A DNA stretch of 64,000 nt from Myxococcota bacterium. Its GTDB lineage: Bacteria > Myxococcota_A > SURF-8. Location of the stretch: contig OZ223209.1 of the NCBI GenBank assembly GCA_965140415.1, positions 1,344,001 to 1,408,000 on the forward strand, in the 5' to 3' direction. The translations under genes and the position numbers were made by a program. Under the pieces are notes generated by a model, which did not search any database, had not been told where the DNA came from, and saw only the letters and a program-made list of their open reading frames with translations. Positions 46,630-63,035 of the stretch are shown here, piece by piece. Within the stretch, counting starts at the first letter, position 1. Every line of letters begins with the position of its first letter.

Positions 46630-46667
46630 CCACTATCCTGCTGATGTCGTGAGACTATGACTTAATA

Positions 46668-46695
46668 TTGACAGGCCGATGAGAGGTGTTATGAT
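46668..46695 (+). promoter_or_regulatory. Putative sigma70 promoter facing the 3' end of rloB
   Basis: TTGACA-N16-TATGAT with extended TG. Confidence 0.45.
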
Positions 46696-46763
46696 GGCTG
46701 GCCGGACTGTTGATCTGTAAGTTTTGTAAGTGGAGTGGAGGTTTGTGTAAAACAAATAAAATC

Positions 46764-48732: not shown

Positions 48733-48979
48733 TTGATATTCCAGTTCTAAGCTTTAAATATTGTGAATTATCTGCACAAAACCCTTATAACATGCTGTTA
48801 TGGGGAGAGTCAATTGTTTTTGATTTATTCCGGATTTTTTATTGACCCATACCCAGTCGCAGGTCATGCAAATTTCTTGCCCGACACATGATAAGCATGT
48901 GGAGCGGGTCCGGAAATTAGGTTCCGACTGAGGAATTCGTAGGCTCCACCTCTCTCACCCTTCATAGCGGAAGTTTCAC

Positions 48980-49008
48980 TTGCCTTTCAAAAAGCCGGGG
49001 GGTAGACT
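48980..49008 (+). promoter_or_regulatory. Putative sigma70 promoter
   Basis: TTGCCT-N17-TAGACT upstream of ORF 49053. Confidence 0.5.
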
Positions 49009-49052
49009 AACATACTGTAAAAGGGAACTATTTTCGGCACAGGAGGGAGAAG

Positions 49053-49508
49053 ATGCAGGAAAGCGGCAAGCGGATCGAAATCTTTTTCCAGGCGCGTCAG
49101 CTACAGGTTCGCGATTTGACGTACATCCTGAACAACCTGACCAGCGCTTTTCGCCACGCGGTGTTTCAACTGAATGACAGCCTGGGCGCTACCCTGAACC
49201 GCGATGAATACGTGCTGCGCCTGTCCGAAATGAATCATGGAAAAACCACTACGCTCTCTTTGCGTGTGGCCGCAACGAAAAAGGGCGTGCAACTGGCTTC
49301 GCCGGAGGCGATCGAGTCGCTGCGCTCGGAGTTGACGGCGGAACTGTTCAAGGTGCTTTCGGTGGGCGACGTGCACAAAAGGCTGCTTTCCTTCCGAAAA
49401 GCCATCGTTAAAAAAGCGCCCCGTATTTCAAAGTTTACTGTTCGTTTGATCAGCACCTCCGCTGCCGGCGAGGAAAAAATCGAAGGCGTGGAAAAGTGGA
49501 TCGATTGA
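49053..49508 (+). CDS. Hypothetical protein
   Basis: 151 aa ORF with AGGAGG RBS, leads the mlaEF genes; no motif recognised. Confidence 0.75.
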   Translation: MQESGKRIEIFFQARQLQVRDLTYILNNLTSAFRHAVFQLNDSLGATLNRDEYVLRLSEMNHGKTTTLSLRVAATKKGVQLASPEAIESLRSELTAELFKVLSVGDVHKRLLSFRKAIVKKAPRISKFTVRLISTSAAGEEKIEGVEKWID

Positions 49509-49542
49509 TGCGTAAGGATTATCTGCAACACCGGGAAAAGCT

Positions 49543-50355
49543 GTGCCAGTCTTGATCACCCTGTTCAACACCATTTTCCAATCCATCAAAGCGCGCCTGG
49601 AAGGCTTCGGCCTGTTCGGCATGATGATCTTCGACACGCTCGCCTGGACTTTCCGTCCGCCGTTTCGTTTCAAGCAACTGTTGCGACAACTGGAGTTTGT
49701 GGGCAGCAATTCGATGTCGATTATTCTACTAACAGGCTTTTTTACCGGTGCGGTGTTTGCCCTGCAATCGGTACTGGCTTTTCGCATCTTTAACGCCGAA
49801 AGCATGGTGGGTTCCACAGTGGCGCTGAGTTTAACGCGGGAACTCGCTCCGGTATTGACCAGCCTGATGGTCACCGGGCGCTGCGGCTCGGCCATGGCTG
49901 CGGAAATCGGCACCATGCGCGTTACCGAACAGATCGACGCGATGACCTCCATGGCGGTCAACCCGGTGCAGTATCTGATCGTCCCGCGTTTATGGGCGGC
50001 GGTGATTATGGTGCCGGTATTGACCATGGTATTCAACGCCATCGGCACGTTCGGAGCCTATGCGGTGGCGGTCTGGATCAACAACATCGATCGAGGCATT
50101 TTAATGGACAACATCTCCTGGTTCGTCGATCCGGCAGATATTTACATCGGATTGACCAAGGCGGTGATTTTCGGATTCATTATCGCCATGGTGGGCTGCT
50201 TTAAAGGATTCACCACCAAAGGCGGCGCACGCGGCGTGGGAATCGCCACGACGCAGGCTGTGGTCGTTGCCAGTGTGACGATTTTAGTGGCCGACTATTT
50301 CCTTTCGCAGTTGATCAACACGCTTTTCGAGCAGAAAACCTGGCTCGTATATTAG
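49543..50355 (+). CDS. mlaE: MlaE-family lipid ABC permease
   Basis: RELAPVLT, GSAMAAEIGTMRVTEQIDA, GARGVG.ATT.AVV. Confidence 0.95.
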   Translation: MPVLITLFNTIFQSIKARLEGFGLFGMMIFDTLAWTFRPPFRFKQLLRQLEFVGSNSMSIILLTGFFTGAVFALQSVLAFRIFNAESMVGSTVALSLTRELAPVLTSLMVTGRCGSAMAAEIGTMRVTEQIDAMTSMAVNPVQYLIVPRLWAAVIMVPVLTMVFNAIGTFGAYAVAVWINNIDRGILMDNISWFVDPADIYIGLTKAVIFGFIIAMVGCFKGFTTKGGARGVGIATTQAVVVASVTILVADYFLSQLINTLFEQKTWLVY

Positions 50356-50366
50356 GATCGTTTGTC

Positions 50367-51101
50367 ATGGATACCGCCGTTCGCTTTGTCAACGTCACCA
50401 AACGTTTCGGTTCCCAGCTCGTGCTGGACGAACTCTGCCTGGACATTCCCAGGGGGCGCATCACGTATATACTGGGTCGCTCCGGTGTGGGAAAAAGCGT
50501 ATTGATCAAACACATCATCGGTTTGCTGAAACCGGATGCAGGGGAAGTCTGGGTAGACGGGCAGGACGTGACCAGGCTTTCCGAGGCGCGTTTGAATGAA
50601 CTGCGCATGAAGTTCGGCATGTTGTTTCAGGATGCCGCCCTGTTCGACAGCATGACGGCATATGAAAATATCGCGTTTCCTTTGCAGGAGCACCGCGCTC
50701 TCTCCGCGAAGGAAGAACGGGAAGTCGTTGCCAGTAAGCTGGCCCAGGTCGGCTTGAGTGGCGTGGAGGAAAAATTCCCTTCGCAACTTTCCGGCGGTAT
50801 GCGCAAACGTGTCGGATTGGCACGGGCCATTGCGCTGGACCCGGAAATCATTTTGTACGATGAACCGACTACCGGGCTGGACCCCTTGATGGTTCAGCAG
50901 GTGGACGAGTTGATCGTGAAAACGCAGGAACAGCAGAAAAGCACCAGTATTGTCATCAGCCACGATATTCCTACGGCGCTGCGCTCTGCCGATCTTATTG
51001 CCGTGTTGGATGCGGGAAAGATCGTAGCGTTGGGAGAACCGGAGGAAATCCGCAAGAGCGAGCATCCCTTCGTTAAGGAGTTTCTACTGGCCGGGAATTG
51101 A
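50367..51101 (+). CDS. mlaF: MlaF-family ABC ATPase
   Basis: GRSGVGKS, FQDAALFDSM, LSGGMRKR, YDEPTTGLDP. Confidence 0.93.
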   Translation: MDTAVRFVNVTKRFGSQLVLDELCLDIPRGRITYILGRSGVGKSVLIKHIIGLLKPDAGEVWVDGQDVTRLSEARLNELRMKFGMLFQDAALFDSMTAYENIAFPLQEHRALSAKEEREVVASKLAQVGLSGVEEKFPSQLSGGMRKRVGLARAIALDPEIILYDEPTTGLDPLMVQQVDELIVKTQEQQKSTSIVISHDIPTALRSADLIAVLDAGKIVALGEPEEIRKSEHPFVKEFLLAGN

Positions 51102-51239: not shown

Positions 51240-51980
51240 TTACCCTTTGAACATGATGGCGGTTCCGGCAAAGAGCAGCACGGAATAAACGAAGATGCGG
51301 AAGCCCCTTTCGGGGAGCTTGTTGTGTATCCCTTCGCCGATAAAAATGCCCAGCGCCAATGCGGGCGAGAGTTGCAGGCTGATCATTAAGGTCGATGAGT
51401 CGATGCGCCCTGCGGTCAAATGGCCGATAAGCAGGATGAGGTTGAGGATCAACCAGACGGCGCTCAAAGTGCTGCGAAACACCCGTTTGTCCGGTAGCGA
51501 ATAGCTGGCCCAGTACGCGATTAGCGGACCGCCCGAAACCCAGAGTCCTTGAACGACGCCGCCGACCAGCAGCCACAATCCGGATGCTTTCGACTTCGGG
51601 TCGGAAAGATTCTGTGGAGGATTATGGAAGTGTCTATATAGCTCGAAAAGCGCCAGGAAGAGCACGAAGGCGCCGAACAGCGGCTTCATCCATCCCGCTT
51701 CCGCCTGGCCGAACAACCACAAGCCCAGCGGCATTCCGGCGATGGTCAGTGGAAGAATGCGCTTGATCAGCGCCTGCACATCGATGCCGCTGCGATGGCG
51801 TATTGCCAGATAAAGACAGATCACGATGTTCAACGGAACGATCACCGGGACCATCAGCGAAATGGGAAAAAGCAGCACGGAGAAGGTCAGGGAAATAATC
51901 GCGCTGCCGAAACCGACGGCTGCCCCTACCATGTAGCCGATCAAGATAATCGGAAAGAGCGCGGCATATTCAAACGACAT
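51240..51980 (-). CDS. TauE/SafE (sulfite exporter) family membrane protein
   Basis: GAAVGFG, GMPLG, GG..QG...SGGP, FRST duplicated architecture; start set at ATG 51980. Confidence 0.85.
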   Translation of the reverse strand: MSFEYAALFPIILIGYMVGAAVGFGSAIISLTFSVLLFPISLMVPVIVPLNIVICLYLAIRHRSGIDVQALIKRILPLTIAGMPLGLWLFGQAEAGWMKPLFGAFVLFLALFELYRHFHNPPQNLSDPKSKASGLWLLVGGVVQGLWVSGGPLIAYWASYSLPDKRVFRSTLSAVWLILNLILLIGHLTAGRIDSSTLMISLQLSPALALGIFIGEGIHNKLPERGFRIFVYSVLLFAGTAIMFKG

Positions 51981-51996
51981 CGAAAATCCCCTGCAT

Positions 51997-52839
51997 TCAA
52001 GCGGATATACGCGCAGCAACGCCACGCGAGAGGAACATCACTCCGGTTACGACCAGTAACATCAGTAACACCTGCGAAAGCGTGGGAAAGATACCATAAA
52101 TCGCGATTTCCAGAAACAATGGCGTTAGAATCGTGGCGGAATTCACGGCGGATACGACTTCGATGGCCCGGCTTTTTAGAAAACCGAATTGCGTAATGAC
52201 CGTGGCGGAGGCGGCGAACAGCAGTGCGACATAAGGGTAGGGGTTATCCAGTTGGCCGGAAAAAGAGCCGCCCGCTTCCACGAGGGCGATGTCCGCAAGA
52301 AAAATGGCCAAGCCGATACAGGTACCCGCCAGACAACCGAAGGCCAGGCCATGAATGGCGCGGTAAAAGCGTGCGAGAAAGCAGGCGACTGCGCCAGCCG
52401 CAAGCAGGATGCCGATGGAGATGATCAGCCGCCCTAACGAAAAGTGACGCTCCGTGATCTCGTGGTTTCCGCCCAAATAAGCCAGGGCGGAGGTGCCTAC
52501 TACCACGAGAGCGATTCCGATGAAATCGCTTTTACCGAAACGCTCCCCGATGACGTTGACCGCATAGATTCCCAATCCGATCAGACCTACGCCGGTCATA
52601 GCCGAAACGGAAGACGGCGACTGCGAGAGCTTCAGTCCCAGCGAAAAGGGAATGGTTGCGCTGGCGGTCATTGCAAAACCCAGAATCCAGAAAATCAAGT
52701 CGCGCCGATGAGCGGAGGTCAAGATCAAGCGTCCGCTGGTGAACACATGCACGAATTGCTTCTGTACGCCTTTGCCGATGTTCATCAATAAGGCCGCGAC
52801 GATTCCGAGCATAAGCCCGTAAACAAACAGGTCGTTCAT
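51997..52839 (-). CDS. Multi-pass membrane protein (DMT-superfamily-like)
   Basis: About 9 TM segments, N.GK.VQK, GERF....IG..L...G pattern. Confidence 0.65.
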   Translation of the reverse strand: MNDLFVYGLMLGIVAALLMNIGKGVQKQFVHVFTSGRLILTSAHRRDLIFWILGFAMTASATIPFSLGLKLSQSPSSVSAMTGVGLIGLGIYAVNVIGERFGKSDFIGIALVVVGTSALAYLGGNHEITERHFSLGRLIISIGILLAAGAVACFLARFYRAIHGLAFGCLAGTCIGLAIFLADIALVEAGGSFSGQLDNPYPYVALLFAASATVITQFGFLKSRAIEVVSAVNSATILTPLFLEIAIYGIFPTLSQVLLMLLVVTGVMFLSRGVAARISA

Positions 52840-52847
52840 CGACTCTC

Positions 52848-54050
52848 CTATAGCAGCTTGGCCGCTTCGAGCATGAGTGTGTCGTTGGTGCCGTCCATAA
52901 TCGCCAGCAGTGGCGCGTCGCGGGAGTATTTTTCCAGTTTGTAATCCTTCGCGATACCGTAACCGCCAAGAACCTGGACCATTTCGGAGGTATGGCGAAT
53001 CGCGAGATCCGTGGTATGGATTTTACCCGTCACGCTGGTCAGCAGATCGCCGGGGAAGGCGTTCTGGCAATGCCAGCTTCCCTTCCACAACAGCGCTCGG
53101 CAGGATTCGATGGCCGTGCGACATTCGAACAGGCGCTTGGTGACGAGTTGATGTTCGATAATCGGTTTGCCCCACTGAACGCGTTCCTTGGCGTAAGCCA
53201 GCGCTTCTTCATACGCAGCGCGCATCAGGCCGACCGCCAGATAGCCGGTGCCCAGGTTTCCAACGGTCATGATGGAATGATGCAGGAAGGGATAGGCATC
53301 TCCCGGCGGGAAGATCAGGTGATCTTCGGGGACTTCGACATCATCGAAGTAAACCGGGGCCTGATTGAGTGCCCGCAGGCCGATGCGGTCTACGGCTTTG
53401 CCGCGCGTGACACCGTCTGCATCGCCCGGAATGATGAACGCGCCTGAACCCCGTATGCCCAGTTCGGGAGAGATGCAGGCGAAGATGATGTAGTTTTTGG
53501 CGATTCCGCCGTTACTGACGAAGTTCGATTTCACCCCGTTGATGACGTAGCGGTCGCCTTTTTTGACGGCGGTGGTGCGATGGCGCACTTTCGGATCGAA
53601 ATAGTTTTTTCCGTCCGAGCCGATATCGGGTTCGCTGCTGCCCCAGGCGGTGATGGCGTTGCCGGTTTCATCTTCGCAGTAGGGGCGCACGTACCGGTCG
53701 ATCAGGTCTTGATTTGTGGAGGCCAGAAATGCCGTAAGAGCCGGCACGACGGAGGCGGCCATCAGCGATGCGGTGAAGCCCGTTCCGTAGCGGGCAAGCT
53801 CTTCCCAAATCAGCGCGTTCGTTGTGGGTTCAAGCCCCAACCCGCCGAATTCTTCTCGGATGCCCATTTTGTGAAAACCGAGTTGAAAAGCCTGGGCCAT
53901 GGTCTTGCGGAAAAGCTCCGATTCGAACGCGGCTTGCGGGTCGGACATTTTATCCAGTTCGATTTCGGCGGGTTCCAGCATCTCTTTGCCGAAATCCCGA
54001 GCGGTCTTGACGAACTGAGTTTGAGTTTCGGATAGCGTAAAATCGATCAT
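52848..54050 (-). CDS. Acyl-CoA dehydrogenase family protein
   Basis: SEPDIGSD, INGVK.FVSNG, ERVQWGKPI, QVLGGYG, RDA....DGT. Confidence 0.92.
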   Translation of the reverse strand: MIDFTLSETQTQFVKTARDFGKEMLEPAEIELDKMSDPQAAFESELFRKTMAQAFQLGFHKMGIREEFGGLGLEPTTNALIWEELARYGTGFTASLMAASVVPALTAFLASTNQDLIDRYVRPYCEDETGNAITAWGSSEPDIGSDGKNYFDPKVRHRTTAVKKGDRYVINGVKSNFVSNGGIAKNYIIFACISPELGIRGSGAFIIPGDADGVTRGKAVDRIGLRALNQAPVYFDDVEVPEDHLIFPPGDAYPFLHHSIMTVGNLGTGYLAVGLMRAAYEEALAYAKERVQWGKPIIEHQLVTKRLFECRTAIESCRALLWKGSWHCQNAFPGDLLTSVTGKIHTTDLAIRHTSEMVQVLGGYGIAKDYKLEKYSRDAPLLAIMDGTNDTLMLEAAKLL

Positions 54051-54059
54051 CCTATCCTC

Positions 54060-54824
54060 CTATTCGCCGCTGCTGAAGTCGGTCATTTTAAAGTAATGGG
54101 GTAAAAAGCTTTCCTGGTCCACTTCCTGAAGGATCTTGCCCGGCAGCATCGTGTTGTGACTGACGATATGGAAAGCCATGATGACGCTTAGCCCGTCCAG
54201 TTCATGCCAGGGATCGGTTTCGGAAGGTTGGAACGTGACTTGTGCGCTACCGATTTCGAGTTCGACCAGGTCGATCTCGGTTTTCTGCTCGGCCAGGAAC
54301 ACGGGACCGTCGAAGCCGGGCTTCAGATCGATGCGGGGCATCCCCTTGAAAAGATAGGTCGGACCGCTCACCGGAAGTTCCGGTAACGTGCCGGACAACT
54401 CGCCTTTGATCTCCAAGAAGCGCACACCGTTGCGTTCGACCCAGCCGTGGATGCGGTTGCCGTCCTTTTCGTAATGGATATTCGCCATCTTTTTCGGGAA
54501 GCCGAAAATGTCCCGCCCGTTGTAATTGCGCGCTTCATTGTTTATCGGCATGGAAAGACAGTATGCACCCGGTTGTCCCTTGTACTTGCAGCGGATAAAC
54601 AAAGCCGCTTCGTGATAGCCCGGTCCGAGATTGGTTTTAGGATATTCGGCGATGAAGATCAATCCACCGGGCATGTCCGCCTGTTCCAGCGGCGCGGGAA
54701 GCAGGGGCGCGGTCTGTTCGGCTGGCGAGGAAAACATCACGCCCATCATCTTGGCATTCTCGAAGCGCCGCACGCCCAGTGCGTAGTAACGTTCCAACTC
54801 TTCGGTAGTTTTCACAAAGCCCAT
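54060..54824 (-). CDS. Acetoacetate decarboxylase-like (Adc) family protein
   Basis: LLPAPL, GYHEAA, GRDIFGFPKK with Schiff-base Lys. Confidence 0.85.
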   Translation of the reverse strand: MGFVKTTEELERYYALGVRRFENAKMMGVMFSSPAEQTAPLLPAPLEQADMPGGLIFIAEYPKTNLGPGYHEAALFIRCKYKGQPGAYCLSMPINNEARNYNGRDIFGFPKKMANIHYEKDGNRIHGWVERNGVRFLEIKGELSGTLPELPVSGPTYLFKGMPRIDLKPGFDGPVFLAEQKTEIDLVELEIGSAQVTFQPSETDPWHELDGLSVIMAFHIVSHNTMLPGKILQEVDQESFLPHYFKMTDFSSGE

Positions 54825-54858
54825 TGTCTTACCTCCATGATTCTTGTTGGTTGCCGTT

Positions 54859-56697
54859 TCAGGAAAACTTTTTATACATCCCGATTTTCGAGGACTGCGC
54901 CTTCAAGATGGCCCACTCTACGAAACCGGGTGACAAGCGGTAAATCATCCAGCCCAATACGCCCACCTTCGTCATGATCAAGCGGCGTTTCCGTTTTCGG
55001 ATCATGTCGACGATCAGTGAAGCGGCATACGCCTGGGTATGGTGTGCGGGCCGATCCGGAGGCACCGGTGTGCCGTCTGCGGCGAGGATGCGCTTTTCCG
55101 GGTCGTGTTCGGTAAAGCCGAGATACACGACGCCCGAATGTACGCCGTCTTCCGCCAGTTCCAGGCGCAGCGATTCGCTGAATCCAGTTAGAGCGCTTTT
55201 ACTGGCGCAATACGTGGACGCGCCGGGTAAGCCGAACAGGCCTGCGATACTGGAAACGAAAACAACGTTACCCTTGTTCTTTCGCAGGTCGTCGATGGCG
55301 GCAGAGGTGGGATAGATACAGCCCATCAGGTTGGTTTGAATCGTCTGTGCGCAGACCTCCGGGGCAAGTTCGTGAAATCTGCCACGCATGGAAACCCCGG
55401 CATTGTTCACCAGAATGTCCACCGGGCCGAACGCTTCACGCGCTTTGGCGACCATGTTTTGAGCGTCATCCCAGTTGCCGACGTCCCCGGTGACCGCTTC
55501 GACCTGGCCTCCGAGTGTCCTTAATTTGGCGAGAGAATCCATCAGCCGGGTTTCCCCCCGAGCGGAAATGACGACCTTGGCCCCGCGCTTCACGAATTCG
55601 CGCGCCAACGCGTATCCGACCCCGCGACTCGCGCCCGTTACCAACACGACGCGATCCTTGAATTCATCGCGGAGGTTACTGAAAATATGGCCGTATCGCA
55701 TCAGGCTGCGCAAGGTTTCCGCAATGCCCGTTTCGATGGGTGTCTGGGGCAGGTCGAGTTCACGTATGGCTTTTTGTGAACTGTAGTAGGTGCCGCAGAT
55801 GGCAAGCTTTGCCAGAGTGCGGTTCAAACCGATACTTTTACCGGTCAGTGTTGTGATGAAACTGCCCAGCAGGCCGATCAGGAGAATCAAAAAACGCGGC
55901 AGCACGTACTTGGGCGGCGTGACACCGATTTGGCGTGCGACCTGGGTGAAGAAATCCTTATAGGTCAGGTTCGGTCCGCCGAGAATGTAGCATTCTCCGT
56001 TACGACCCTTATGCAATGCCGAGATCATGGCATCGGCGACATCCGGTGCGTAGGCGAAGTTGCGGCCACCCGCCGTGACTGCTTTCATCTGACGCACGAT
56101 GAACTGGCGGATCAATTCGCCTGAACTGGGACGCCAGTCGAGATCGCCAAGCATGAATGTCGGTGAAACGACGACGGCTTCCAGTTTCTTTTCATTGACG
56201 TACTGCAATACGAGATTCATGGCGCTGTGCTTGGATTCCATGTACGCAACGCCGTGGTAGCCTTTGGCCATCGGAGTGGTTTCGTCGCCCGGCTTCTCGA
56301 TAGAGCCGTAGCCGAAGGAACTGGCCGACCCGGTGAAAATCAGGCGGGTAACGTTCTTGGCCACGCAGGCATCCAGCACTTTCCGAGTCCCCTCAAAATT
56401 GACCTTCCACGTCAATTCGGAACTGGCCCACATATCCGTGATCGCCGCCAGGTGAAACACATAGGTGCAGCCGTCCATGCACTCCGCCAGCCCGTCGCCT
56501 TCGTCGAGCAGATCGCCTTCGACTCGCTCGATGTTCAGCCCGTCCAAGGTGGGACTGGTGCTCCCCTTTTGACTGAGAACCCTGACCTGGTACTGTTGTT
56601 CCAACAGTTTGCGGACCAGGTGGCTTCCCAGCAAGCCATCGGCACCGATGACGAGTACCCGTTCTTTCAAGTTGTCCGTTTCTGCAACCATATTCAT
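54859..56697 (-). CDS. Fusion of extended SDR (epimerase/3-beta-HSD/HpnA-like) and classical SDR
   Basis: N-domain GADGLLG, HLAA, YMESK; C-domain TGASRGVG, NNAG, YCASK; ATGA overlap with the activase stop. Confidence 0.88.
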   Translation of the reverse strand: MNMVAETDNLKERVLVIGADGLLGSHLVRKLLEQQYQVRVLSQKGSTSPTLDGLNIERVEGDLLDEGDGLAECMDGCTYVFHLAAITDMWASSELTWKVNFEGTRKVLDACVAKNVTRLIFTGSASSFGYGSIEKPGDETTPMAKGYHGVAYMESKHSAMNLVLQYVNEKKLEAVVVSPTFMLGDLDWRPSSGELIRQFIVRQMKAVTAGGRNFAYAPDVADAMISALHKGRNGECYILGGPNLTYKDFFTQVARQIGVTPPKYVLPRFLILLIGLLGSFITTLTGKSIGLNRTLAKLAICGTYYSSQKAIRELDLPQTPIETGIAETLRSLMRYGHIFSNLRDEFKDRVVLVTGASRGVGYALAREFVKRGAKVVISARGETRLMDSLAKLRTLGGQVEAVTGDVGNWDDAQNMVAKAREAFGPVDILVNNAGVSMRGRFHELAPEVCAQTIQTNLMGCIYPTSAAIDDLRKNKGNVVFVSSIAGLFGLPGASTYCASKSALTGFSESLRLELAEDGVHSGVVYLGFTEHDPEKRILAADGTPVPPDRPAHHTQAYAASLIVDMIRKRKRRLIMTKVGVLGWMIYRLSPGFVEWAILKAQSSKIGMYKKFS

Positions 56698-57602
56698 CCT
56701 CCCCATATCGGCTGGCAGCCTGCCAATTGAAATGCATCCACGATGCGTTGCCTGTCTTTTTCCTGTACGTTCTCGAAAGAACGGTAGTCGTTTATACGTC
56801 CGGTTCGTTCGTATTTTCCTTTGGCCCAGCCGTGGTAAGGCAATAGGTCCACGCGACCCGTATAACCGGCCTTTGCTAGAAAGGCGGACATCGTTTCGAT
56901 GCTGTGGTTATCAGTGTTGAATTCCGGAATGAGCGGAATGCGCATGATCAATTTGTCGGCTGCAGTCGAGATCAACTGCTGAAGATTTGCCATGATGGTG
57001 TCGTTACTGACACCAGTGTAACGGCGATGTGTTTCGGGATCGTGATGTTTGAAATCGAAGAGGAATAGGTCTACAGCGGAGATAAGTTCCGGGAGGAGGT
57101 TCGTGTTGAAATGTCCGCAGGTTTCGATGGCGGTATGTATGCGTTCGCTTTTCAAGCGCGCCAGGATCTCGAGCAGAAACTCGGGTTGGCGCGTCGGTTC
57201 GCCTCCACTGAAGGTCACGCCACCACCGGATGACTCATAGAATGGGCGATCGGCCAGCAAGAGCGGCATGAGATCGTCTGCATCCATGTCATATCCGATG
57301 TATTCCTGCGCCGATTCGGTGCAGGTTTCCACACAGGTTCCGCAGACTGTACAGCAGTTCAAATCCCTGCTGATGCGGCCATCGGTCAAGGATAAGGCTT
57401 GCTCGGGGCAAGTCTTCACGCAGTTGCCGCAGCCGATGCAGGTTCGGCTGCGCCAGCCGATTTCTTTCTTGTCGGATTGCGACTCGGGGTTGTGGCACCA
57501 TGCGCACTGCAAAGGACAGCCCTTTAAAAAGACGCAGGTACGGATTCCGGGGCCGTCGTAGATGGCGTTGTACTGGATGTCGAAAAGAACGCCAGTGGTC
57601 AT
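56694..57602 (-). CDS. Glycyl-radical enzyme activating protein (radical SAM with ferredoxin insert)
   Basis: DGPGIRT.VFLKGCPLQCAWCHNPES, two CxxCxxCxxxC motifs, GGVTFSGGEP. Confidence 0.95.
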   Translation of the reverse strand: MTTGVLFDIQYNAIYDGPGIRTCVFLKGCPLQCAWCHNPESQSDKKEIGWRSRTCIGCGNCVKTCPEQALSLTDGRISRDLNCCTVCGTCVETCTESAQEYIGYDMDADDLMPLLLADRPFYESSGGGVTFSGGEPTRQPEFLLEILARLKSERIHTAIETCGHFNTNLLPELISAVDLFLFDFKHHDPETHRRYTGVSNDTIMANLQQLISTAADKLIMRIPLIPEFNTDNHSIETMSAFLAKAGYTGRVDLLPYHGWAKGKYERTGRINDYRSFENVQEKDRQRIVDAFQLAGCQPIWGG

Positions 57603-60215
57603 TTAGAAAGCTCCATGTTCGGTACGCGCGATAATTTCATCTTGAATTTCGCTTCCCAGATCCACGAAGTAGGTGCTGTATCCGCCGACCTTGACGATCA
57701 GATCCTGGTGCTTTTCGGGATTCGTTTTCGCTTCGCGCAATTGCTCCGTGGAAACGCAGGTAGGCTGTAGCTGTGCGCCTCCCATGTTGAAGTAGGTACG
57801 GATCAGTTGTATCCATTTGCGTTGCGTTTCTTCGGTTTCGCCGATTGCACTGGGGTGGAATTTCATGTTGACGGCGCTGCCCATGACATCGCCAAACGGC
57901 AGGGCAGCGACCGAGCGAAGTGCGGCTGTTGCGCCGAAACGCTCGACGTTATACGGATTGCAACTGGCCGCATAAGGAAGCGCCGCCTTGCGACCGTCCG
58001 GTCCGGCGATGGAAAGCCGCCCGTCGATGGTATGGGTAATCATGCTGATGACGTACACCACGAAAGGCCCGTTCCGGGTGGTGCGATACTTGTAGGTGAT
58101 ATCGAATAGGCGCTTGCATACGGTGGCCGCCAGTTCATCCGATTCCGGGTGCCCGTTTCCCCATTTGCCGGGAAGAGCTTTGATCTTTTTTGCAAGCTCT
58201 TCATAACCGACGAAGGAGTGATCCATGGCTTCTAAAAGTTCGCGCATGCTGCAAGCACTCTCTTCGTAAACCAGCTTTTTGATGGCATAGAGCGAATCGA
58301 CCATGTTGGCGATGGAGTTGATCATCGAAATACCAGCCAGATCGTAGGTCGCACCACCAGTAGTGACATCTTGCTTGGATTGCAGGCAGCCATCCATGAA
58401 AGCCGAGATGTAAGGTGCAGGTAGATAGCGAGAGAATAACGAATCGCGCAGGTTCGATCCATTGACGAGTTTTTCGATGAAAAATTCCGCCTGCTTGTAA
58501 AGTGCTTCCAGGAAGGATTCGAAATCCGGGAAGTCGTCGGGATCGCCCGTGCTGGGGCCTTCCTGCTTGATGATCCCAGCCAAAATCGCCGAGTCCCCGT
58601 TGCGCATGGTGATGTCGAGCAGCCGTGCCAGTTGCAGCGCATTGGCGCTCATGCTACCGGTTTTTCCGGGACAGGTCGCTTCGACACAACCCATGACAGC
58701 GTAGTTTCTCGCATCCTCTTCCAGAAAGCCTCTCTGAAGCATGGATTCGATATGCGTCGTGTCGTTGAACAGGGAATAACTGGACGTACCCTGCTTCAGG
58801 TAGTGGGCCACGGCTTGCAGAAGCTCGCTGGGCGTGTTGTCGTGAATGCGGATGGACACGTTGGTGATGGCCTTGGAATGGTGCGCCGCTTCGATGAAAA
58901 GATAGGTCAGCTCATTGGTTGCGTCCTGGCCGCTTTCGTCCACACCACCTAAGGTGATCGGGGATGATCCCAGAAAGCGGTGATAGAAATTACTTAAAAT
59001 GTTGGATTCGGGACGAATGTTCTGGCTCATGATTTTAAGTAGCAGCTCTTCCAATAACTCCAGGGCGTCCTGTTTCGATATGTCGCCGCTTTCGATGTCG
59101 CGCCGGTAATAGTCGATCAGGCTCTGATCCAAACGACCGAAGCAATGCAGATTGACCGGATGAGCCAGTTCCAGAGCGGTCTTGACCGTCCACAGCGACT
59201 GAACCGCCTGCCGGAAACTGCCGGCGGGTTCGAAGGGAACGTGGCGGCAGATGTTAAGCATGGTTTCAAGTTCGCGCTTGCGTTCGCTGTCGTTTTCCCG
59301 TTCCATTTCGTTCGCAAGCTTTTCTGCCAAGCGCTTGGAAAACACCTCGACGCCTTGCAGCGCAACAAGTTGCGACTCCAGTGCGGCTTTCTGTTCGGCT
59401 GTCAGATTCTTTTGATCCAGGGCCGCACGAAGGTTTTCAATCAATCCCTTTAATCCAAGGCGAAGGACGCTTTCGTAATCCGCAATGACGTGCCCCTGAT
59501 AGGTGGCGATGGTCGTACAGGTGGAAACCATTTGCACCTGCCGCGACGTGTTGCCCGGCAGCGCCACGGCGAAGTCGTGCATGTCCTTGGAGTACAAGCC
59601 GGATTTCAGCGTCTCCCGTTCCAGGTGATCGACCACGGTTTGGCCGTCCCAATACGGGAGAAGCTGGCTCAGTAACTCTTTTCGATCGTCTTTATTGATG
59701 TGATAGGGATTGATGTTTCGCTCGCCCATGGTTTTGAAATCCATGTTCAGCGGTTGCGATCCCGCCATTTTGGCGAGCTTCTGATTGCGCATGAAGTCAC
59801 TAAGGGTTCCCTTTTTCAGCATGTAGGAAAGCCCTTTGGCCATCGAACCGATTCTGAAACGGATCATGGAGGATTTAGTCAATTCAGCCTGAAAGACCTT
59901 GTTGAACACGCCGCGCTCGATGTCGATGGGAACGCCAAGGAAGAATTCGGTCCAGCTACCGGCTATGCGTTCGTCCCGGTCGAGGTAGATCGTCATGTTT
60001 TCGAAAACGTGCTTCATTGCATGGGCCACGCGCAGAGGTAGCGGCATTCCCGAGTTTTCCGTTTGCTGCCAGCTTTGCGTGTAGTAGCGGGCGCGTTCGA
60101 CGGAAATCATGGCGGGTCCGAACTGGTAGCGATGCTTCATCCTGGCGATGCGGCTATCCGGTTCGTTTAGGTAGCGATCCGTTTCTGCTGATAGCTGATG
60201 TGTGGTTTCCAACAC
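57603..60215 (-). CDS. Glycyl radical enzyme (PFL2/dehydratase-eliminase superfamily), substrate unknown
   Basis: Cys loop MGCVE, Gly loop LIVKVGGYSTYF, FGRLDQ, QDEIIART. Confidence 0.93.
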   Translation of the reverse strand: MLETTHQLSAETDRYLNEPDSRIARMKHRYQFGPAMISVERARYYTQSWQQTENSGMPLPLRVAHAMKHVFENMTIYLDRDERIAGSWTEFFLGVPIDIERGVFNKVFQAELTKSSMIRFRIGSMAKGLSYMLKKGTLSDFMRNQKLAKMAGSQPLNMDFKTMGERNINPYHINKDDRKELLSQLLPYWDGQTVVDHLERETLKSGLYSKDMHDFAVALPGNTSRQVQMVSTCTTIATYQGHVIADYESVLRLGLKGLIENLRAALDQKNLTAEQKAALESQLVALQGVEVFSKRLAEKLANEMERENDSERKRELETMLNICRHVPFEPAGSFRQAVQSLWTVKTALELAHPVNLHCFGRLDQSLIDYYRRDIESGDISKQDALELLEELLLKIMSQNIRPESNILSNFYHRFLGSSPITLGGVDESGQDATNELTYLFIEAAHHSKAITNVSIRIHDNTPSELLQAVAHYLKQGTSSYSLFNDTTHIESMLQRGFLEEDARNYAVMGCVEATCPGKTGSMSANALQLARLLDITMRNGDSAILAGIIKQEGPSTGDPDDFPDFESFLEALYKQAEFFIEKLVNGSNLRDSLFSRYLPAPYISAFMDGCLQSKQDVTTGGATYDLAGISMINSIANMVDSLYAIKKLVYEESACSMRELLEAMDHSFVGYEELAKKIKALPGKWGNGHPESDELAATVCKRLFDITYKYRTTRNGPFVVYVISMITHTIDGRLSIAGPDGRKAALPYAASCNPYNVERFGATAALRSVAALPFGDVMGSAVNMKFHPSAIGETEETQRKWIQLIRTYFNMGGAQLQPTCVSTEQLREAKTNPEKHQDLIVKVGGYSTYFVDLGSEIQDEIIARTEHGAF

Positions 60216-60225
60216 GTCCTCGCTT

Positions 60226-60840
60226 TCACTTTTCCGGCGGTCCGTTCTCGACGGAATCGATCAGTACGTTTGCAAGCCAGCTTAAATGCAGCTTGCGCTC
60301 TTTGACCAACGCCTTTGACATCGGGTCTTTATTGAGCAGGCGGCTGAGCAACTCGTCGTAGGTGAAATAGCTGATGATCGCGCCGTAATAGCTGACGAGT
60401 AGATGCTCGGCAGCGGTTTCTCCCTTTTTCGTCTTCGGGTAGACGTCTTTTAGCGCCCGGATTCCGAGATCGAAGAGCGGGGTCATATGCGTGGCGATAC
60501 GATCCAGGTGAGCGCCCCCGGCGGCTTCCCGCTGGACGATGCGCCCGAAATTCCGATTCTCGATTAGGAAATCGACGTACGCATCGATCAGGGTTTGCAG
60601 GCGCTCGCGTAAGGTGACGTCCTGGGAAAGGGTGCTTTGCAACTGTTGACCTAGTTTCACGTAGTATCGGTCCAGTAGTTCGGTTAAAAGCCCCTGCTTG
60701 CTTTGAAAGTGGTAATGGATCAATGCCTTGTTCACGTTCGCACGTTCCGCAATTTCGCGGGTGGTTGTGGCATCGAAACCGATTTCACCGAACAGTTCAT
60801 CCGCTGCTTCAAGAATTTTCTCTTTTGCATTCGTACTCAT
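60226..60840 (-). CDS. TetR/AcrR family regulator
   Basis: ILEAA.ELF...GFDATTTREIAERANVNKALIHYHF.SK. Confidence 0.95.
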   Translation of the reverse strand: MSTNAKEKILEAADELFGEIGFDATTTREIAERANVNKALIHYHFQSKQGLLTELLDRYYVKLGQQLQSTLSQDVTLRERLQTLIDAYVDFLIENRNFGRIVQREAAGGAHLDRIATHMTPLFDLGIRALKDVYPKTKKGETAAEHLLVSYYGAIISYFTYDELLSRLLNKDPMSKALVKERKLHLSWLANVLIDSVENGPPEK

Positions 60841-60898
60841 AATCGACTCGCTCTATGAATGTGTGCGTGAAAATTAACCGGTCGCCCAATTAATTTCA

Positions 60899-60927
60899 AT
60901 TATCAGCATACCGCAGGGAATTGTCAA
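60899..60927 (-). promoter_or_regulatory. Putative sigma70 promoter of the tetR-GRE operon
   Basis: Minus strand TTGACA-N17-GATAAT. Confidence 0.65.
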
Positions 60928-61146
60928 GTCTATTCGTAAAAGGAAAAAATCAGCGAATTTGGCGGCGGTTACAAAGAAGAAATACCCTAGCCTTACGCTA
61001 CTGAAGATTGCGAAAAATCTCGTGTAGTGATGCAGCTACACACGGCCTCCCGGAATTTTCATTCCGTGAGACCATGGCACAGCTCCGATTGTTTGTCACG
61101 CGAGAAAGAAGGCGCTCCGGCAATGATCGATGCCTAAACCGGTTGG

Positions 61147-62571
61147 CTATGGTTCCAATTTTCCCGGATTCAGGATGCGATTCGGATCGAGCAGGTTTTT
61201 TACGCCCTCGATGACGTCGAGCATGGCTGGGTTGATCTTTTCGGCCATGCGCTTCCAGGCCCAGCTTGGCGTTTTGTACATCAGGAAACCCTTTTCGCTG
61301 AGCATGGTAAGCAATTCGCTGTTCAGCGCTTTGATGGCCTCGACTTCCTTTTCGTTCTTCTTGTCGAAAATGGCGATGAAGCGCAGAACGCCGAAGTGAC
61401 CGCCGCGCATGGGGCGGGAAACGATGATCGGTGGGAAACCATGGCGTGTCATGATTTCGATGCCCGCCTCTGCGCCTTCCTGAAATTTGGACAGGGGACC
61501 GTAGGTGCCGATCCAGGTCAAGCCGCCGCCGCCGTGGTCGGTGAGAAAATCCAGGTCCGTCGGGAATTCCGCGAACTTGTTCATCTTCGGGTTCACCTTG
61601 ACCAGCGTTTCGATATCCAGTGGGTCTTCGTAGCGTTCGCCATCTGCCCGTAACTCGTGGATGACGGAAAGCAGAATCTTCTCTTTGACCTTCATTTCTT
61701 CTTCGATCTCCGCCGTCAGATCGATGTAGAGGAAAAACTGCGGTTCGCCTTCGGAGGGGACCGGATGCGGTCGCTTGACGCCCATCATCATCTTGCCCGA
61801 AGGCCAGCTCAGTCCGCCGATGTCATCGCAGATTTCTTTTTTGACAAGTCGCCGCATGGCGCGATAGGTCGCCTGGGGATCGTAGGTCAAAATAAAGAGC
61901 CGCTTATTCAACGGATGGGCGGGCCAGAGCTGGAAGGCCATTTTGACGGCAACGCCCGTGGTGCCCTGCCAGCCGATGAACAAGCCGGTCAGATCTGGAA
62001 AAGGCACGAGTCCGAATGGTGTTGTGTTTTGATGCGCCCAGGCACCGGTTTTTAAGATGTCGCCATTGGGCATAACGACTTCCAGCCCGGAAATCCAGTC
62101 CGACTGATCACCGTATTTCAGCGAGCGGTTGGTCAAGCCGCCCAGCAAAGCATTGGCGAAAATCGAGGTGTTCGGCGGCGCCAGAGAATATCCCAATGTC
62201 AACGGCAGGTCGTGTTCGATGAGATAATCTTTGATGATCTGCTGGGTGACACCGGGCTCGATGATGGCGTACATGTCGTCTACGTTGACTTCCAGCACCC
62301 GATTCATGCGTGTCATGTCGAGCACCACACCGCCGCGCTCGGGGATGGTCAGCCCTCCGACATTGGTGCCGTAGGCACGCGGGGTAAGTGGCATTTTCAA
62401 CTCGTTGGCATGGGCGACGATTTTCCGTACCTGTTCCGCATTATCCACCATGGCCACAAATTGAGGATCGTGGGCGGGGGCCTCGGTAAAGTCCTCGCGA
62501 TATTTCGCGATGTCGTCCGTTTGTGTGAGCACATTTTCAGCGCCGAGCAGATCGATTAAAAATTGTTTCAC
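61147..62571 (-). CDS. FAD-binding oxidoreductase (GlcD/VAO-type, FAD_binding_4)
   Basis: TPRAYGTNVGG, LDMTRMNRVLEV, EPGV, LEVVMPNG, GTTGV, LDPNRILNPG. Confidence 0.9.
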   Translation of the reverse strand: MKQFLIDLLGAENVLTQTDDIAKYREDFTEAPAHDPQFVAMVDNAEQVRKIVAHANELKMPLTPRAYGTNVGGLTIPERGGVVLDMTRMNRVLEVNVDDMYAIIEPGVTQQIIKDYLIEHDLPLTLGYSLAPPNTSIFANALLGGLTNRSLKYGDQSDWISGLEVVMPNGDILKTGAWAHQNTTPFGLVPFPDLTGLFIGWQGTTGVAVKMAFQLWPAHPLNKRLFILTYDPQATYRAMRRLVKKEICDDIGGLSWPSGKMMMGVKRPHPVPSEGEPQFFLYIDLTAEIEEEMKVKEKILLSVIHELRADGERYEDPLDIETLVKVNPKMNKFAEFPTDLDFLTDHGGGGLTWIGTYGPLSKFQEGAEAGIEIMTRHGFPPIIVSRPMRGGHFGVLRFIAIFDKKNEKEVEAIKALNSELLTMLSEKGFLMYKTPSWAWKRMAEKINPAMLDVIEGVKNLLDPNRILNPGKLEP

Positions 62572-62640
62572 GGTATTGCTCTCCTTGATCGTCTGGTAAG
62601 AGATGGAATGCCTTTGTAAATTGAATCGATCGAAGCTGCA

Positions 62641-63012
62641 TCAGGTAGTAATCAAAGGCAGCATTTTCAGCAGGGCAAACGGATTGCCGCCGATCTTCAG
62701 CTTCCCGGCCATAAAGGGTGCGACCATTCCCGCTCCTGTGACTACACCGAGCAGTGAGGTCATGGTGCCGGCTACTCGTGCTTTGGATTGGCCCGTATCG
62801 CCGCGAATGATCGTCAGTTGACCGTCGGCAAAGCGCAGCGTGACCGACATATCCGCTGCCTTTACCAGGATGTCTCCGCTCATCGAGCAGGCGCGCGCGT
62901 ACTTGTGCTCGTCGGCGAGATTGTTGGAGAGCAGCCCGTGCATCAAAAGGCCAAGGATGCTCATTTTTTCCGGTTCCGCAAGGACCACCCGCTCATTGAC
63001 ATCTCGTTGCAT
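62641..63012 (-). CDS. SCP2 sterol/lipid-binding domain protein
   Basis: PFMAGKLKIGGN C-terminal SCP2 signature, 123 aa. Confidence 0.75.
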   Translation of the reverse strand: MQRDVNERVVLAEPEKMSILGLLMHGLLSNNLADEHKYARACSMSGDILVKAADMSVTLRFADGQLTIIRGDTGQSKARVAGTMTSLLGVVTGAGMVAPFMAGKLKIGGNPFALLKMLPLITT

Positions 63013-63035
63013 GTTGTTCCCTCGATTTCATCATG

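Follow-up and report, generated by a model that had tools for sequence, protein, structure and literature searches.

A glycyl radical enzyme cassette outside the characterized classes in a Myxococcota genome

Glycyl radical enzymes (GREs) give anaerobes access to chemistry that otherwise requires oxygen. In a 64,000-nucleotide stretch of a Myxococcota genome (lineage SURF-8; contig OZ223209.1 of assembly GCA_965140415.1, positions 1,344,001 to 1,408,000; hereafter the window), we found an eight-gene operon built around a GRE whose comparison with known enzymes supports its placement outside all characterized classes. Its cassette is spread among many anaerobic bacteria and some Asgard archaea. 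We lean slightly toward a general scheme in which these genes form a TetR-repressed, substrate-inducible catabolic cassette for the anaerobic use of a hydroxylated compound, and we regard any single substrate class for the GRE cassette as improbable at best.

Organization of the operon

The open reading frame (ORF) tables place eight co-oriented genes on the minus strand of the window (60840-51240), separated from tetR to the TauE gene by gaps of 10, 0, -4, 34, 9, 8, and 16 nt. The gap of -4 presupposes that the short-chain dehydrogenase/reductase (SDR) gene starts at Met4 (ATG at 56697), and the gap of 16 that the TauE gene starts at Met16 (ATG at 51980). In the order of transcription, the features are:

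61021..61042, minus strand: terminator-like hairpin after the FAD-oxidase gene, the upstream boundary of the operon
60899..60927, minus strand: sigma-70-like promoter TTGACA-N17-GATAAT, 11/12 consensus matches
60874..60893, no strand given: operator-like palindrome of the TTAAYYGG-N4-CCRRTTAA class, from sequence reading and a pattern search
60226..60840, minus strand: tetR, TetR-family repressor, 204 aa
57603..60215, minus strand: GRE, 870 aa
56694..57602, minus strand: activase, a radical SAM GRE-activating enzyme, 302 aa
54859..56706 (or from Met4 at 56697), minus strand: fused double SDR, 615 aa
54060..54824, minus strand: Schiff-base enzyme of the acetoacetate decarboxylase (ADC) fold, ADC-like, 254 aa
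52848..54050, minus strand: flavoprotein of the acyl-CoA dehydrogenase (ACAD) fold, ACAD-like, 400 aa
51997..52839, minus strand: permease with 10 transmembrane segments, similar to drug/metabolite transporters (DMT-like), 280 aa
51240..52025, minus strand: TauE/SafE (TSUP) permease, 261 aa (246 aa from Met16 at 51980)

Pfam supports every family assignment in the operon except that of the 10-transmembrane protein. The promoter lies in the sole long intergenic gap (306 nt), upstream of tetR. Since the number of promoter-like sites in the region was not above the shuffle mean (5 observed vs. 6.1, i.e., no excess), the promoter call rests on position and not on statistics. Several related loci likewise show TTGACA-type boxes before the operator. 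A search of the 53 window ORFs with Pfam found no genes for bacterial microcompartment (BMC) shell proteins, ProC-like proteins, or small subunits, and BMC domains were likewise absent from the scanned neighbors of related loci. An earlier sequence-only reading of this DNA had described the eight co-oriented genes, a single TTGACA-N17-GATAAT promoter, and the absence of these usual GRE partners; the coordinates reproduce every gap that it gave, the promoter is found at 60927-60899, and the missing partners are indeed missing. In most of the 24 related loci (see below), the GRE ortholog is again accompanied by this gene set, so the arrangement is more than chance.

Three further genes precede the operon on the minus strand (61147-63995). 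These encode a 474-aa flavoprotein of the vanillyl-alcohol oxidase (VAO)/p-cresol-methylhydroxylase type (the FAD-oxidase), a 123-aa SCP2 protein, and orf319. The reading frame of orf319 continues beyond the window end; neither Pfam nor the PDB gave a match for it, and it contains a G-I-S-L-G (GxSxG-like) motif. The terminator-like hairpin and the 306 nt that lie before the operon suggest that this trio is probably a separate transcription unit.

Sequence and predicted structure of the glycyl radical enzyme

The GRE contains a PFL-like domain (PF02901, E = 7.8e-143) and a Gly_radical domain (PF01228, E = 3.3e-20). With the Cys loop GCVE (C510-V511-E512) and the glycyl motif VKVGGYS carrying G845, its sequence reads as that of a complete, catalytically competent enzyme. 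Residue conservation was assessed in 27 family members, comprising the window protein and those of related loci. H242, C510, and G845 are invariant (27/27), and position 512 is Glu in 24 members and Asp in three. In a phmmer alignment to glycerol dehydratase (GD; 1R8W), H242, C510, and E512 correspond to residues 164, 433, and 435. A 2026 review of GREs describes GD His164 as the donor of a proton to the leaving hydroxyl, Cys433 as the thiyl site, and Glu435 as the base for the carbinol hydroxyl. According to the same review, all C-O, C-N, and C-S eliminases have retained the Cys-x-Glu (CXE) motif, as have the isomerases HplG, YbiW, and PflD. The Cys loop that had been noted earlier as eliminase-type is therefore present, but the class that it marks is wider than was claimed; as GRE isomerases keep the motif too, it indicates an eliminase or isomerase and no more.

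Several other motifs distinguish this family, namely, QGH(V/L)I, AHPVNLHCFGR, GCVExTCPGKTGxMSA, and YVISMxTHTIDGR, and R225/Q226 are invariant. K842 and G844 are each found in 26 of the 27 members, so a KVGGY glycyl motif is family-wide. We take the usual glycyl motif to be RV(A/S)GY (RVxG[FWY] type), compared with which this family has Lys for Arg and Gly for Ala/Ser.

A 59-residue insertion at approximately residues 97-155 is missing in the alignments to solved GREs. In the AlphaFold model, which was built from 28 homologs (pLDDT 86, pTM 0.89), this insertion forms three helices with pLDDT of about 80-88. Its net charge is +3 to +11 in all 28 sequences, and the GRE as a whole is mostly acidic. 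This basic insertion is the only family-wide feature that hints at membrane association, which it might serve among other possible roles. The database copy of the window GRE (P0001) has 835 aa and is 35 residues shorter than our prediction. Because R22 and Q31, which are invariant in 28 homologs, both lie upstream of the start of P0001, the GTG at 60215 is the likelier start of the GRE.

A search of the protein collection gave 478 GRE matches. The best 120 of these (the window's own protein apart) are 59-73% identical to the window GRE and have generic names only, and nearly all are 835-890 aa in length. No longer, fused forms of the GRE were found, a result that the search tool itself grades as weak evidence.

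Relationship to characterized glycyl radical enzymes

The window GRE fell below every NCBIfam equivalog cut-off. The best match was HpsG (428 bits, cut-off 1000), followed by HypD (397, cut-off 1100), HpfG (388, cut-off 1000), CutC (377, cut-off 1050), PFL2 (350, cut-off 1109), indoleacetate decarboxylase (285, cut-off 1100), HPAD (219, cut-off 1150), and PFL (96, cut-off 994). The broad model of the PFL2/glycerol-dehydratase subfamily (TIGR01774) was also missed, with 458.8 bits against a cut-off of 678.2. Among PDB sequences, the phmmer scores were nearly tied for HpsG (337 bits), propanediol dehydratase (PD; 334.5), CutC (334.3), and GD (332), and were lower for YbiW/PflD (274 and 270) and HplG (255). 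Similarly, Foldseek comparisons with GD, PD, HplG, HypD, an Archaeoglobus GRE, CutC, HpsG, IslA, and YbiW/PflD all gave query-normalized TM scores of 0.79-0.83; the best matches were GD and PD (E = 4e-52 to 1e-49, target-normalized TM 0.84-0.90). Solved GREs are 24-28% identical to the window GRE. These results support the assignment of the window GRE to no characterized class, as the sequence-only reading had suspected.

These comparisons bear directly on one alternative, namely, a dehydratase of glycerol or 1,2-propanediol that is ordinary except for its diverged sequence and the loss of its microcompartment. GD and PD are its best structural matches and the His/Cys/Glu triad is conserved. 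However, the identity to these enzymes is only 27-28%, the TIGR01774 cut-off is missed by a wide margin, and at GD positions 281, 282, and 447, which we take to be diol-binding, the window GRE has N355, L356, and A524, each of them shared by 23 of the 27 family members. Genes of the PduP/L/Q type or for 1,3-propanediol dehydrogenase are also absent, and the partner set is quite different. We thus find this alternative very hard to credit.

Conservation of the cassette across related loci

Related loci were collected in one scan of species-representative genomes, which gave 30 loci (L001 to L030), and gene presence was scored by tblastn of the window proteins (at least 50% coverage, E = 1e-8). 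We treated as in-family the 24 loci in which the GRE is at least 55% identical over at least half of its length. The remaining loci were L018 and L029 (fragments), L026 (54.97%), L027 and L028 (47%), and L030 (32%). The following counts refer to the 24 in-family loci:

ADC-like gene beside the GRE: 20/24 loci
ACAD-like gene beside the GRE: 20/24 loci
Extended SDR half beside the GRE: 18/24 loci
Classical SDR half beside the GRE: 18/24 loci
TetR gene beside the GRE: 18/24 loci
Activase gene beside the GRE: 11/24 loci
DMT-like gene beside the GRE: 6/24 loci
TauE gene beside the GRE: 4/24 loci
FAD_binding_4 flavoprotein gene beside the GRE: 2/24 loci, only the Asgard loci L013 and L015
SCP2 gene: 0/24 loci
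orf319: 0/24 loci

As contigs end near the GRE in L007, L014, L016, and L022, each count is a minimum. Any other gene family was seen in five loci at most.

Three gene orders were observed. The window, L001, and L004-L006 have tetR-GRE-activase-SDR-SDR-ADC-ACAD, whereas L007, L008, L010, and L012 have ADC-ACAD-tetR-GRE-activase-SDR-SDR, and L019-L022 have a divergent SDR pair followed by tetR-GRE-ADC-ACAD. In the subgroup of L019-L022 and L024, the two SDR genes are transcribed divergently from tetR, and a gene for the activase is absent up to 10 kb from the GRE; the activase of these five loci must be encoded elsewhere or shared. The conserved core consists of six to seven genes, and the eight-gene order itself is lineage-specific. 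Homologous GREs do share the neighbors that the sequence-only reading had pointed to (ADC-like and ACAD-like genes, both SDR halves, and TetR). As for conservation of the full eight-gene order, the core persists through at least three orders, and the two permease genes (DMT-like in six and TauE in four of the 24 loci) accompany it in few loci.

In a quick maximum-likelihood tree (L003 excluded, root arbitrary), the window groups with the Myxococcota metagenome-assembled genomes (MAGs) of L025 and L005 with support of 100 and 98. Several groupings mix phyla, namely, a Gemmatimonadota and Myxococcota sister pair (support 100), a Nitrospirota and Hydrogenedentota sister pair (support 100), and the Asgard loci L013/L015 with a Syntrophomonadaceae MAG (support 92). 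Such mixed sister pairs fit a horizontal spread of the cassette.

Two neighboring lineages or genes deserve mention. First, the GREs of L026, L027, and L028 (55%, 47%, and 47% identity) form a sister subclade that has Cys-Val-Asp instead of Cys-Val-Glu and is without the ADC, ACAD, SDR, and TetR partners. Its two Asgard members adjoin genes for an MFS_2 permease, an aldehyde:ferredoxin oxidoreductase, and a xylose-isomerase-like TIM barrel. This subclade probably acts on a different substrate. Second, a protein of about 507 aa with HMG-CoA_red_N and URO-D/MtaA-like regions is encoded between tetR and the GRE gene in L001 (8352-9875) and L006 (8429-9955), with a partial copy at the locus edge in L017 (17890-18360).

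The TetR repressor and its putative operator

The regulator has a TetR_N domain (PF00440, E = 2.7e-19) and falls below every NCBIfam equivalog cut-off. The operator-like palindrome is imperfect and begins 5 nt downstream of the -10 box (3 nt when flanking bases are counted). Its pattern has a single match in the 64-kb window, even with one mismatch allowed, compared with 0.02 expected by chance; two of 100 shuffles gave one match. The exact pattern occurs in six of the 30 loci, always before the first cassette gene. It precedes tetR in L001, L004, and L006; in L007, L010, and L012, whose permuted operons start with the ADC-like gene, it precedes that gene. In L003, L005, L009, L011, and L025, tetR is preceded by near variants, and a related palindrome, TGACCG-n-TCGGTCA, was found in L019-L021 and L024. 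Since the putative operator follows the cassette through rearrangements of gene order, there is good evidence at the sequence level that the TetR protein is the cognate regulator of the cassette, that the genes form one regulon, and that the palindrome is its predicted operator. This repressor/operator pair offers a clean experimental handle, as the compound that binds TetR is expected to be the substrate itself or closely derived from it.

Partner enzymes and permeases

The activase gene directly abuts the GRE gene (0-nt gap). The protein scores 330.6 bits against TIGR02494 (cut-off 174), matches Radical_SAM, Fer4_12, and Fer4 in Pfam, and carries the CX3CX2C motif as well as two ferredoxin-like Cys motifs.

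The double SDR combines two types of domains. The N-terminal half is an extended SDR with GxxGxxG and YxxxK motifs (Epimerase, E = 9e-40; 3Beta_HSD, E = 2.1e-26) and scores 243 bits against HpnA (cut-off 368). The C-terminal half is a classical SDR with TGxxxGxG, NNAG, and YxxxK motifs (adh_short, E = 1.2e-53) and passes PRK06181, an uninformative model (229 vs. 215 bits). In related loci, the two halves are encoded by one fused gene or by two adjacent genes. Membrane anchoring of the SDR was considered as a family trait and dropped, as a strong hydrophobic segment is present in the window protein only (Kyte-Doolittle score 1.95, compared with values below 1.6 in most orthologs).

The ADC-like protein matches PF06314 (E = 6.9e-44) and scores 59.1 bits against the model of true ADC, NF002614 (cut-off 150). 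Its PKK motif contains K111 (K111-K112), which is invariant in 15 of 15 sequences and aligns with residue 116 of 3BGT; E72 is invariant and R19 nearly so. The structural model (pLDDT 82) gave Foldseek TM scores of 0.73 to ADC, 0.67 to the Sbi aldolase-dehydratase, 0.68 to MppR, and 0.70 to Swit_4259. The model and the conserved Lys make Schiff-base chemistry likely, with both decarboxylase and aldolase-dehydratase activity compatible with these data. A profile search of a representative library of 1.84 billion proteins gave 1871, 897, and 124 matches at E = 1e-3, 1e-10, and 1e-30; the best 150 are nearly all stand-alone or fragmentary proteins of about 90-320 aa and provided no functional lead.

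The ACAD-like protein has all three ACAD domains (PF02771, PF02770, and PF00441). Its best NCBIfam match is acryloyl-CoA reductase (196 bits, cut-off 640), and it scores 152 bits against the model of 3-sulfinopropionyl-CoA desulfinase. In an alignment to butyryl-CoA dehydrogenase 1BUC (172 bits), D386 corresponds to residue 367, which we take to be the catalytic Glu base, and this position is Asp in all 18 orthologs compared. No genes for electron transfer flavoprotein (ETF), thiolase, hydratase, or CoA ligase are conserved around the cassette among the neighbors scanned. Because of this absence and the Glu-to-Asp change, a standard role in beta-oxidation is unlikely. The ACAD family includes members that are not dehydrogenases, such as 3-sulfinopropionyl-CoA desulfinase, nitroalkane oxidase (with an Asp base), BbuA (which eliminates trimethylamine from gamma-butyrobetainyl-CoA), and 4-hydroxybutyryl-CoA dehydratase. 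From these sequence features, we infer that the ACAD-like protein may carry out non-canonical chemistry, i.e., elimination, isomerization, or a desulfination-like reaction.

The ADC-like and ACAD-like genes appear to be closely coupled. The latter lies immediately downstream of the former in every tblastn locus that holds both, and four natural fusions of metagenomic origin (P0121-P0124, 674-686 aa) join the two through a Pro/Ala/Glu-rich linker. The fusion proteins are 62-67% identical to the window ADC-like protein and have the same Asp motif. Their existence argues that the two proteins act together. Predictions of a complex between the ADC-like and ACAD-like proteins gave 0.55, 0.00, and 0.00 in three runs, which speaks neither for nor against binding.

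For the 10-transmembrane protein, which has multiple hydrophobic segments, Pfam gave no significant match, only EamA at E = 0.029, which is below the cut-off. Its look-alikes in the ESM Atlas at 0.95 belong to EamA/NIPA clusters, in which these domains are carried by 16-55% of the members, making DMT-like a reasonable label. The TauE/SafE assignment is based on PF01925 (E = 9.3e-28, 97.9 bits vs. a gathering score of 32.6).

A proposed catabolic scheme

The TetR-type repressor and the permeases inside the operon argue for a catabolic and inducible cassette. What the data show is the gene set, its conservation, the operator motif, and the catalytic residues; the reaction steps below are our inference. 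In such a cassette, the activase would install the glycyl radical at G845, and the thiyl radical at C510 would abstract a hydrogen from a hydroxyl-bearing carbon. E512 would then take the hydroxyl proton and H242 would protonate the neighboring leaving group, as proposed for GD. Breakage of the adjacent C-O bond (less likely a C-N bond) would give an aldehyde or ketone; if the leaving group stays attached, the reaction would instead be a ring-opening isomerization that yields a keto isomer. Aldehyde:ferredoxin oxidoreductase genes near the GRE in L002, L008, and L027 favor an aldehyde product. The two SDR domains may shift the oxidation state from alcohol to aldehyde or ketone, and the extended half, which is cinnamoyl-CoA-reductase-like, could possibly convert an aldehyde to an acyl-CoA. 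The ADC-like protein (with Schiff-base Lys111) and the ACAD-like protein (with the Asp386 base) would act as one coupled unit, in which a decarboxylation or retro-aldol step is combined with a flavin-assisted elimination or isomerization. As no ETF or beta-oxidation genes travel along, this step would not be a standard acyl-CoA dehydrogenation. The products would pass into central metabolism, and in the window lineage the DMT-like and TSUP permeases may import the substrate or export the product. The sequence-only reading had proposed a radical elimination to a carbonyl that is then processed by SDRs, a Schiff-base enzyme, and an acyl-CoA dehydrogenase. This remains the most economical account, and we have widened its first step to an eliminase or isomerase.

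Several observations weigh against this scheme. The activase gene is not within 10 kb of the GRE in 13 of the 24 loci. Both the ADC-like and ACAD-like genes are missing in L013, L014, L015, and L024 at the thresholds used, although the L014 contig ends about 2 kb after the GRE and L015 has only a distant ADC-like gene (34% identical, 5 kb upstream); with four GRE loci lacking both, the partnership is frequent and not obligatory. The roles given above to the SDR, ADC-like, and ACAD-like proteins come from chemical reasoning, and the idea of a CoA ester comes from family resemblance only, since neither a CoA ligase or transferase nor a thiolase or hydratase is conserved. The hints from neighboring genes, which point variously to lipids, sugar phosphates, and aromatic compounds, do not converge.

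A last point on this side is that the cassette may be biosynthetic or modifying, serving, for example, a membrane lipid or a secondary metabolite. Biosynthetic clusters can contain HpnA-like SDRs and ADC-fold enzymes such as MppR, and the distribution of the cassette is patchy. Against this, a TetR repressor with a predicted operator over the promoter and permeases within the operon fit catabolism better, and no synthases, transferases, or carrier proteins were found in the 24 loci, which makes a biosynthetic role seem remote.

Candidate substrates

Four substrate classes were weighed within or beside the catabolic scheme. The first is a sulfonate, in which case the GRE would act on dihydroxypropanesulfonate or a related C3/C4 hydroxy-sulfonate, either by C-S cleavage like HpsG or by dehydration like HpfG. 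A sulfo-aldehyde would be converted to its CoA ester, the ACAD-like protein would remove sulfite in the manner of 3-sulfinopropionyl-CoA desulfinase, and TauE would export it. HpsG is the best equivalog and PDB match, if marginally, a TauE/TSUP gene lies inside the window operon, the ACAD-like protein scores on the desulfinase model, and the invariant R225/Q226 of the GRE could bind an anion. In addition, genes for a GPH transporter and an LsrF-like/DeoC-family aldolase are nearby in L017, and a PfkB kinase gene in L002; these three families also occur in sulfoquinovose pathways. On the other hand, every sulfonate equivalog cut-off is missed by more than 570 bits, and no sulfite reductase or sulfoquinovosidase gene is conserved nearby. 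The 2026 review attributes anchoring of the sulfonate in HpsG to Arg183, Gln187, and Arg672. When aligned with 6LON, the window GRE has A237, H242, and Y721 at these positions (with low confidence near 237); its residues 232-242 contain no Arg or Lys, and position 721 is Tyr or Phe in 26 of the 27 family members. Because the anchors are not kept and TauE is linked in only 4/24 loci, sulfite release is unlikely as a general function, and the sulfite hint that had been drawn from TauE is not borne out. We judge a sulfonate substrate to be improbable.

The second class is lipid head groups. A GRE at the membrane surface would cleave the C-O or C-N bond beside the hydroxyl of a glyceryl ether (alkylglycerol or archaeol) or of a sphingoid base, the SDRs would turn the fatty alcohol or aldehyde into an acyl-CoA, and the ADC/ACAD pair would complete removal of the head group. 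The basic helical insertion in an otherwise mostly acidic GRE is consistent with this, as are a weak NAD_binding_4 match and a PRK07201 match in the SDR. Both SDR types have relatives that interconvert fatty alcohols, aldehydes, and acyl-CoA. Several neighbors are lipid-related: L025 has a ceramidase-like gene immediately before tetR, L005 has MMPL and LolA-like genes, L024 has a GDSL lipase, alpha/beta-hydrolases occur in L004, L009, and L017, and the MlaEF, SCP2, and GxSxG-motif proteins are encoded beside the window operon. However, these neighbors do not recur (each in 1/24 loci), the hydrophobic SDR segment is strong in the window protein only, thiolase and hydratase genes are not linked, and the DMT, TSUP, MFS, and GPH permeases of such operons better suit a soluble substrate. 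A lipid head-group lyase is accordingly rated as rather unlikely.

The sequence-only reading had taken the SCP2 and FAD-oxidase genes as hints of an ether lipid or sterol-like substrate, and these hints did not hold, since SCP2 and orf319 are absent from all 24 loci and the FAD-oxidase is of the VAO type. As a candidate, an alkyl-dihydroxyacetone-phosphate-synthase-like function of the FAD-oxidase was rejected (E = 1e-6, compared with 1e-35 to 1e-30 for p-cresol methylhydroxylase and vanillyl-alcohol oxidases). The window FAD-oxidase occurs in no bacterial locus among the 24. The Asgard loci L013 and L015 have a FAD_binding_4 protein gene after that of the GRE, and these flavoproteins have only the FAD domain in common with that of the window (33% identity over 258 residues).

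With a sugar-derived substrate (an anhydro-, deoxy-, or phospho-sugar or a sugar acid), the GRE would be a YbiW/PflD-like isomerase or eliminase, and the ADC-fold protein would serve as a downstream aldolase. As noted, GRE isomerases keep the CXE motif according to the 2026 review, and ADC-fold enzymes include aldolase-dehydratases. Sugar-related genes were found near several GREs. Transporters of the GPH/MFS type are encoded in L013, L017, L027, and L028, the last two of which also have the xylose-isomerase-like TIM barrel. L006 and L017 each have an LsrF-like thiolase that exceeds its NCBIfam cut-off, L017 has a class II aldolase as well, and L002 has TreT and a PfkB hexose kinase. Nevertheless, YbiW/PflD are no closer to the window GRE than other GREs are (274 and 270 bits vs. 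337 for the best), the sugar genes change from locus to locus, with several coming from the more distant subclade with 47% identity, and the ACAD-like flavoprotein would have no obvious role. We think a sugar pathway about as improbable as a sulfonate pathway.

The fourth class is the arylglycerol beta-aryl ether of lignin, in which abstraction of a benzylic hydrogen would expel a phenolate, the SDRs would convert the hydroxy-ketone to a beta-keto acid, and the ADC-fold enzyme would decarboxylate it. This chemistry would employ the GRE, both SDRs, and a beta-keto-acid decarboxylase. The VAO/p-cresol-methylhydroxylase-type flavoprotein beside the window operon, the FAD_binding_4 protein after the GRE in L013 and L015, the MtaA/URO-D-like protein between tetR and the GRE in L001 and L006, and glyoxalase-fold genes in L015 and L026 are compatible with it. 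Yet this route is built entirely by deduction, the window and Asgard flavoproteins share no more than the FAD domain, no ring-reduction or O-demethylase corrinoid genes are linked, and the ACAD-like protein is left unexplained. We consider lignin ether cleavage highly improbable.

Surroundings of the operon in the window

Facing the 3' end of the operon are genes for an MlaE permease and an ABC ATPase (an MlaF-like pair; 49543-51101, plus strand); the stop codons of the two convergent units are separated by only 138 nt, in which no terminator-like site was detected. A few kb from the operon, an AbiL-like two-gene defense module (46764-48732, minus strand; AbiLi E = 2.6e-98, AbiLii E = 1.5e-35; AAA_21 and RloB in Pfam terms) lies beside an IS200-type transposase gene (46042-46491, plus strand; Y1_Tnp, E = 9e-44) and near a 488-aa ORF that has no family match. 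GC content falls from about 0.55 to 0.445-0.485 at about 42000-50000, and the region looks like a small mobile or defense island. Genes for an AAA_21 ATPase and a DUF4276 protein lie directly beside the cassette SDR genes in L020 (5105-6939) and L021 (5112-6925); this echo of the AAA_21/RloB pair of the window may be a coincidence. Farther away, co-oriented genes on the minus strand (34831-42218) encode a TonB-dependent receptor, a 1362-aa protein of the CobN/Mg-chelatase family, a MotA/ExbB-like protein, and a DUF2149 protein, and this block looks like a locus for metal or corrinoid uptake or chelation.

Significance and comparison with known systems

Our full-text searches of the literature found no description of this gene set or of the ADC-like/ACAD-like pairing. 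The limonene GRE of PMC12583861 is a fumarate-adding enzyme, and PMC12747264 has GREs only in its reference list. In its available part, the 2026 review lists no comparable enzyme; it counts about a dozen known eliminase or isomerase functions, nearly all from gut bacteria, and whole GRE clades, those of archaea above all, as unassigned. The GRE clade described here is large and environmental, not gut-associated, with a conserved and self-contained partner set. The pairing and fusion of ADC-like and ACAD-like proteins and the switch of the base from Glu to Asp widen the supposed scope of these two old folds. If the substrate is an abundant sediment compound, the cassette would mark an unrecognized route of anaerobic carbon turnover. 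In the most far-reaching version, it would be the first radical route for a class of bonds without a known anaerobic enzyme (the ether of bacterial or archaeal glyceryl ether lipids, the beta-aryl ether of lignin, or the C-N bond of sphingoid bases), with a new two-protein ADC/ACAD "finishing" enzyme, and horizontal transfer would have distributed it over Asgard archaea and at least six phyla of sediment bacteria. We hold that version to be unlikely.

Among known systems, GD (1R8W/1R9D) and PD (5I2G, 9RCO) share with the window GRE the PFL-like barrel, the C-terminal glycyl radical domain, the Cys-x-Glu loop, the equivalent of His164 (H242), and an activase with an extra ferredoxin-like insert. 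The window GRE differs from them in its low identity (27-28%), the 59-residue basic insertion, and KVGGY, and its operon has other partner genes in place of a microcompartment and Pdu-type aldehyde genes. The sulfonate enzymes HpsG, IseG-IslA, and HpfG resemble it in the CXE motif, in the top rank of HpsG among equivalog and PDB matches, and in the TauE-type permease of the window operon, whereas the anchors of HpsG are replaced, the HpsG/HpfG scores are 388-428 bits against cut-offs of 1000, and TauE is linked in few loci. YbiW/PflD, which act on anhydro-sugar phosphates, and HplG likewise have the CXE motif without a microcompartment. The review describes how the ketone product of a GRE isomerase goes to downstream cleavage enzymes; compared with YbiW/PflD, the window cassette has no conserved sugar-phosphate aldolase or kinase. 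CutC shares the CXE motif, elimination beside a carbinol (as given in the review), and a similar score (334 bits by phmmer), whereas Cut-type microcompartment genes are absent here and the CutC cut-off is missed (377/1050).

The partner proteins show the same combination of likeness and distance. Compared with the ADC superfamily (3BGT/3BH2, Sbi_00515, MppR, and Swit_4259), the ADC-like protein has the double-barrel fold (TM 0.65-0.73), the invariant Schiff-base Lys, and the conserved Arg and Glu, but is 16-22% identical and equidistant from the decarboxylase and aldolase-dehydratase branches. The ACAD-like protein differs from acyl-CoA dehydrogenases in having Asp for the catalytic Glu, in reaching no equivalog cut-off, and in having no linked ETF genes. 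As far as checked, the cassette thus combines a known kind of system, i.e., a GRE eliminase or isomerase with its activase, with a new clade, a new partner set, a new ADC/ACAD coupling, and a new operator.

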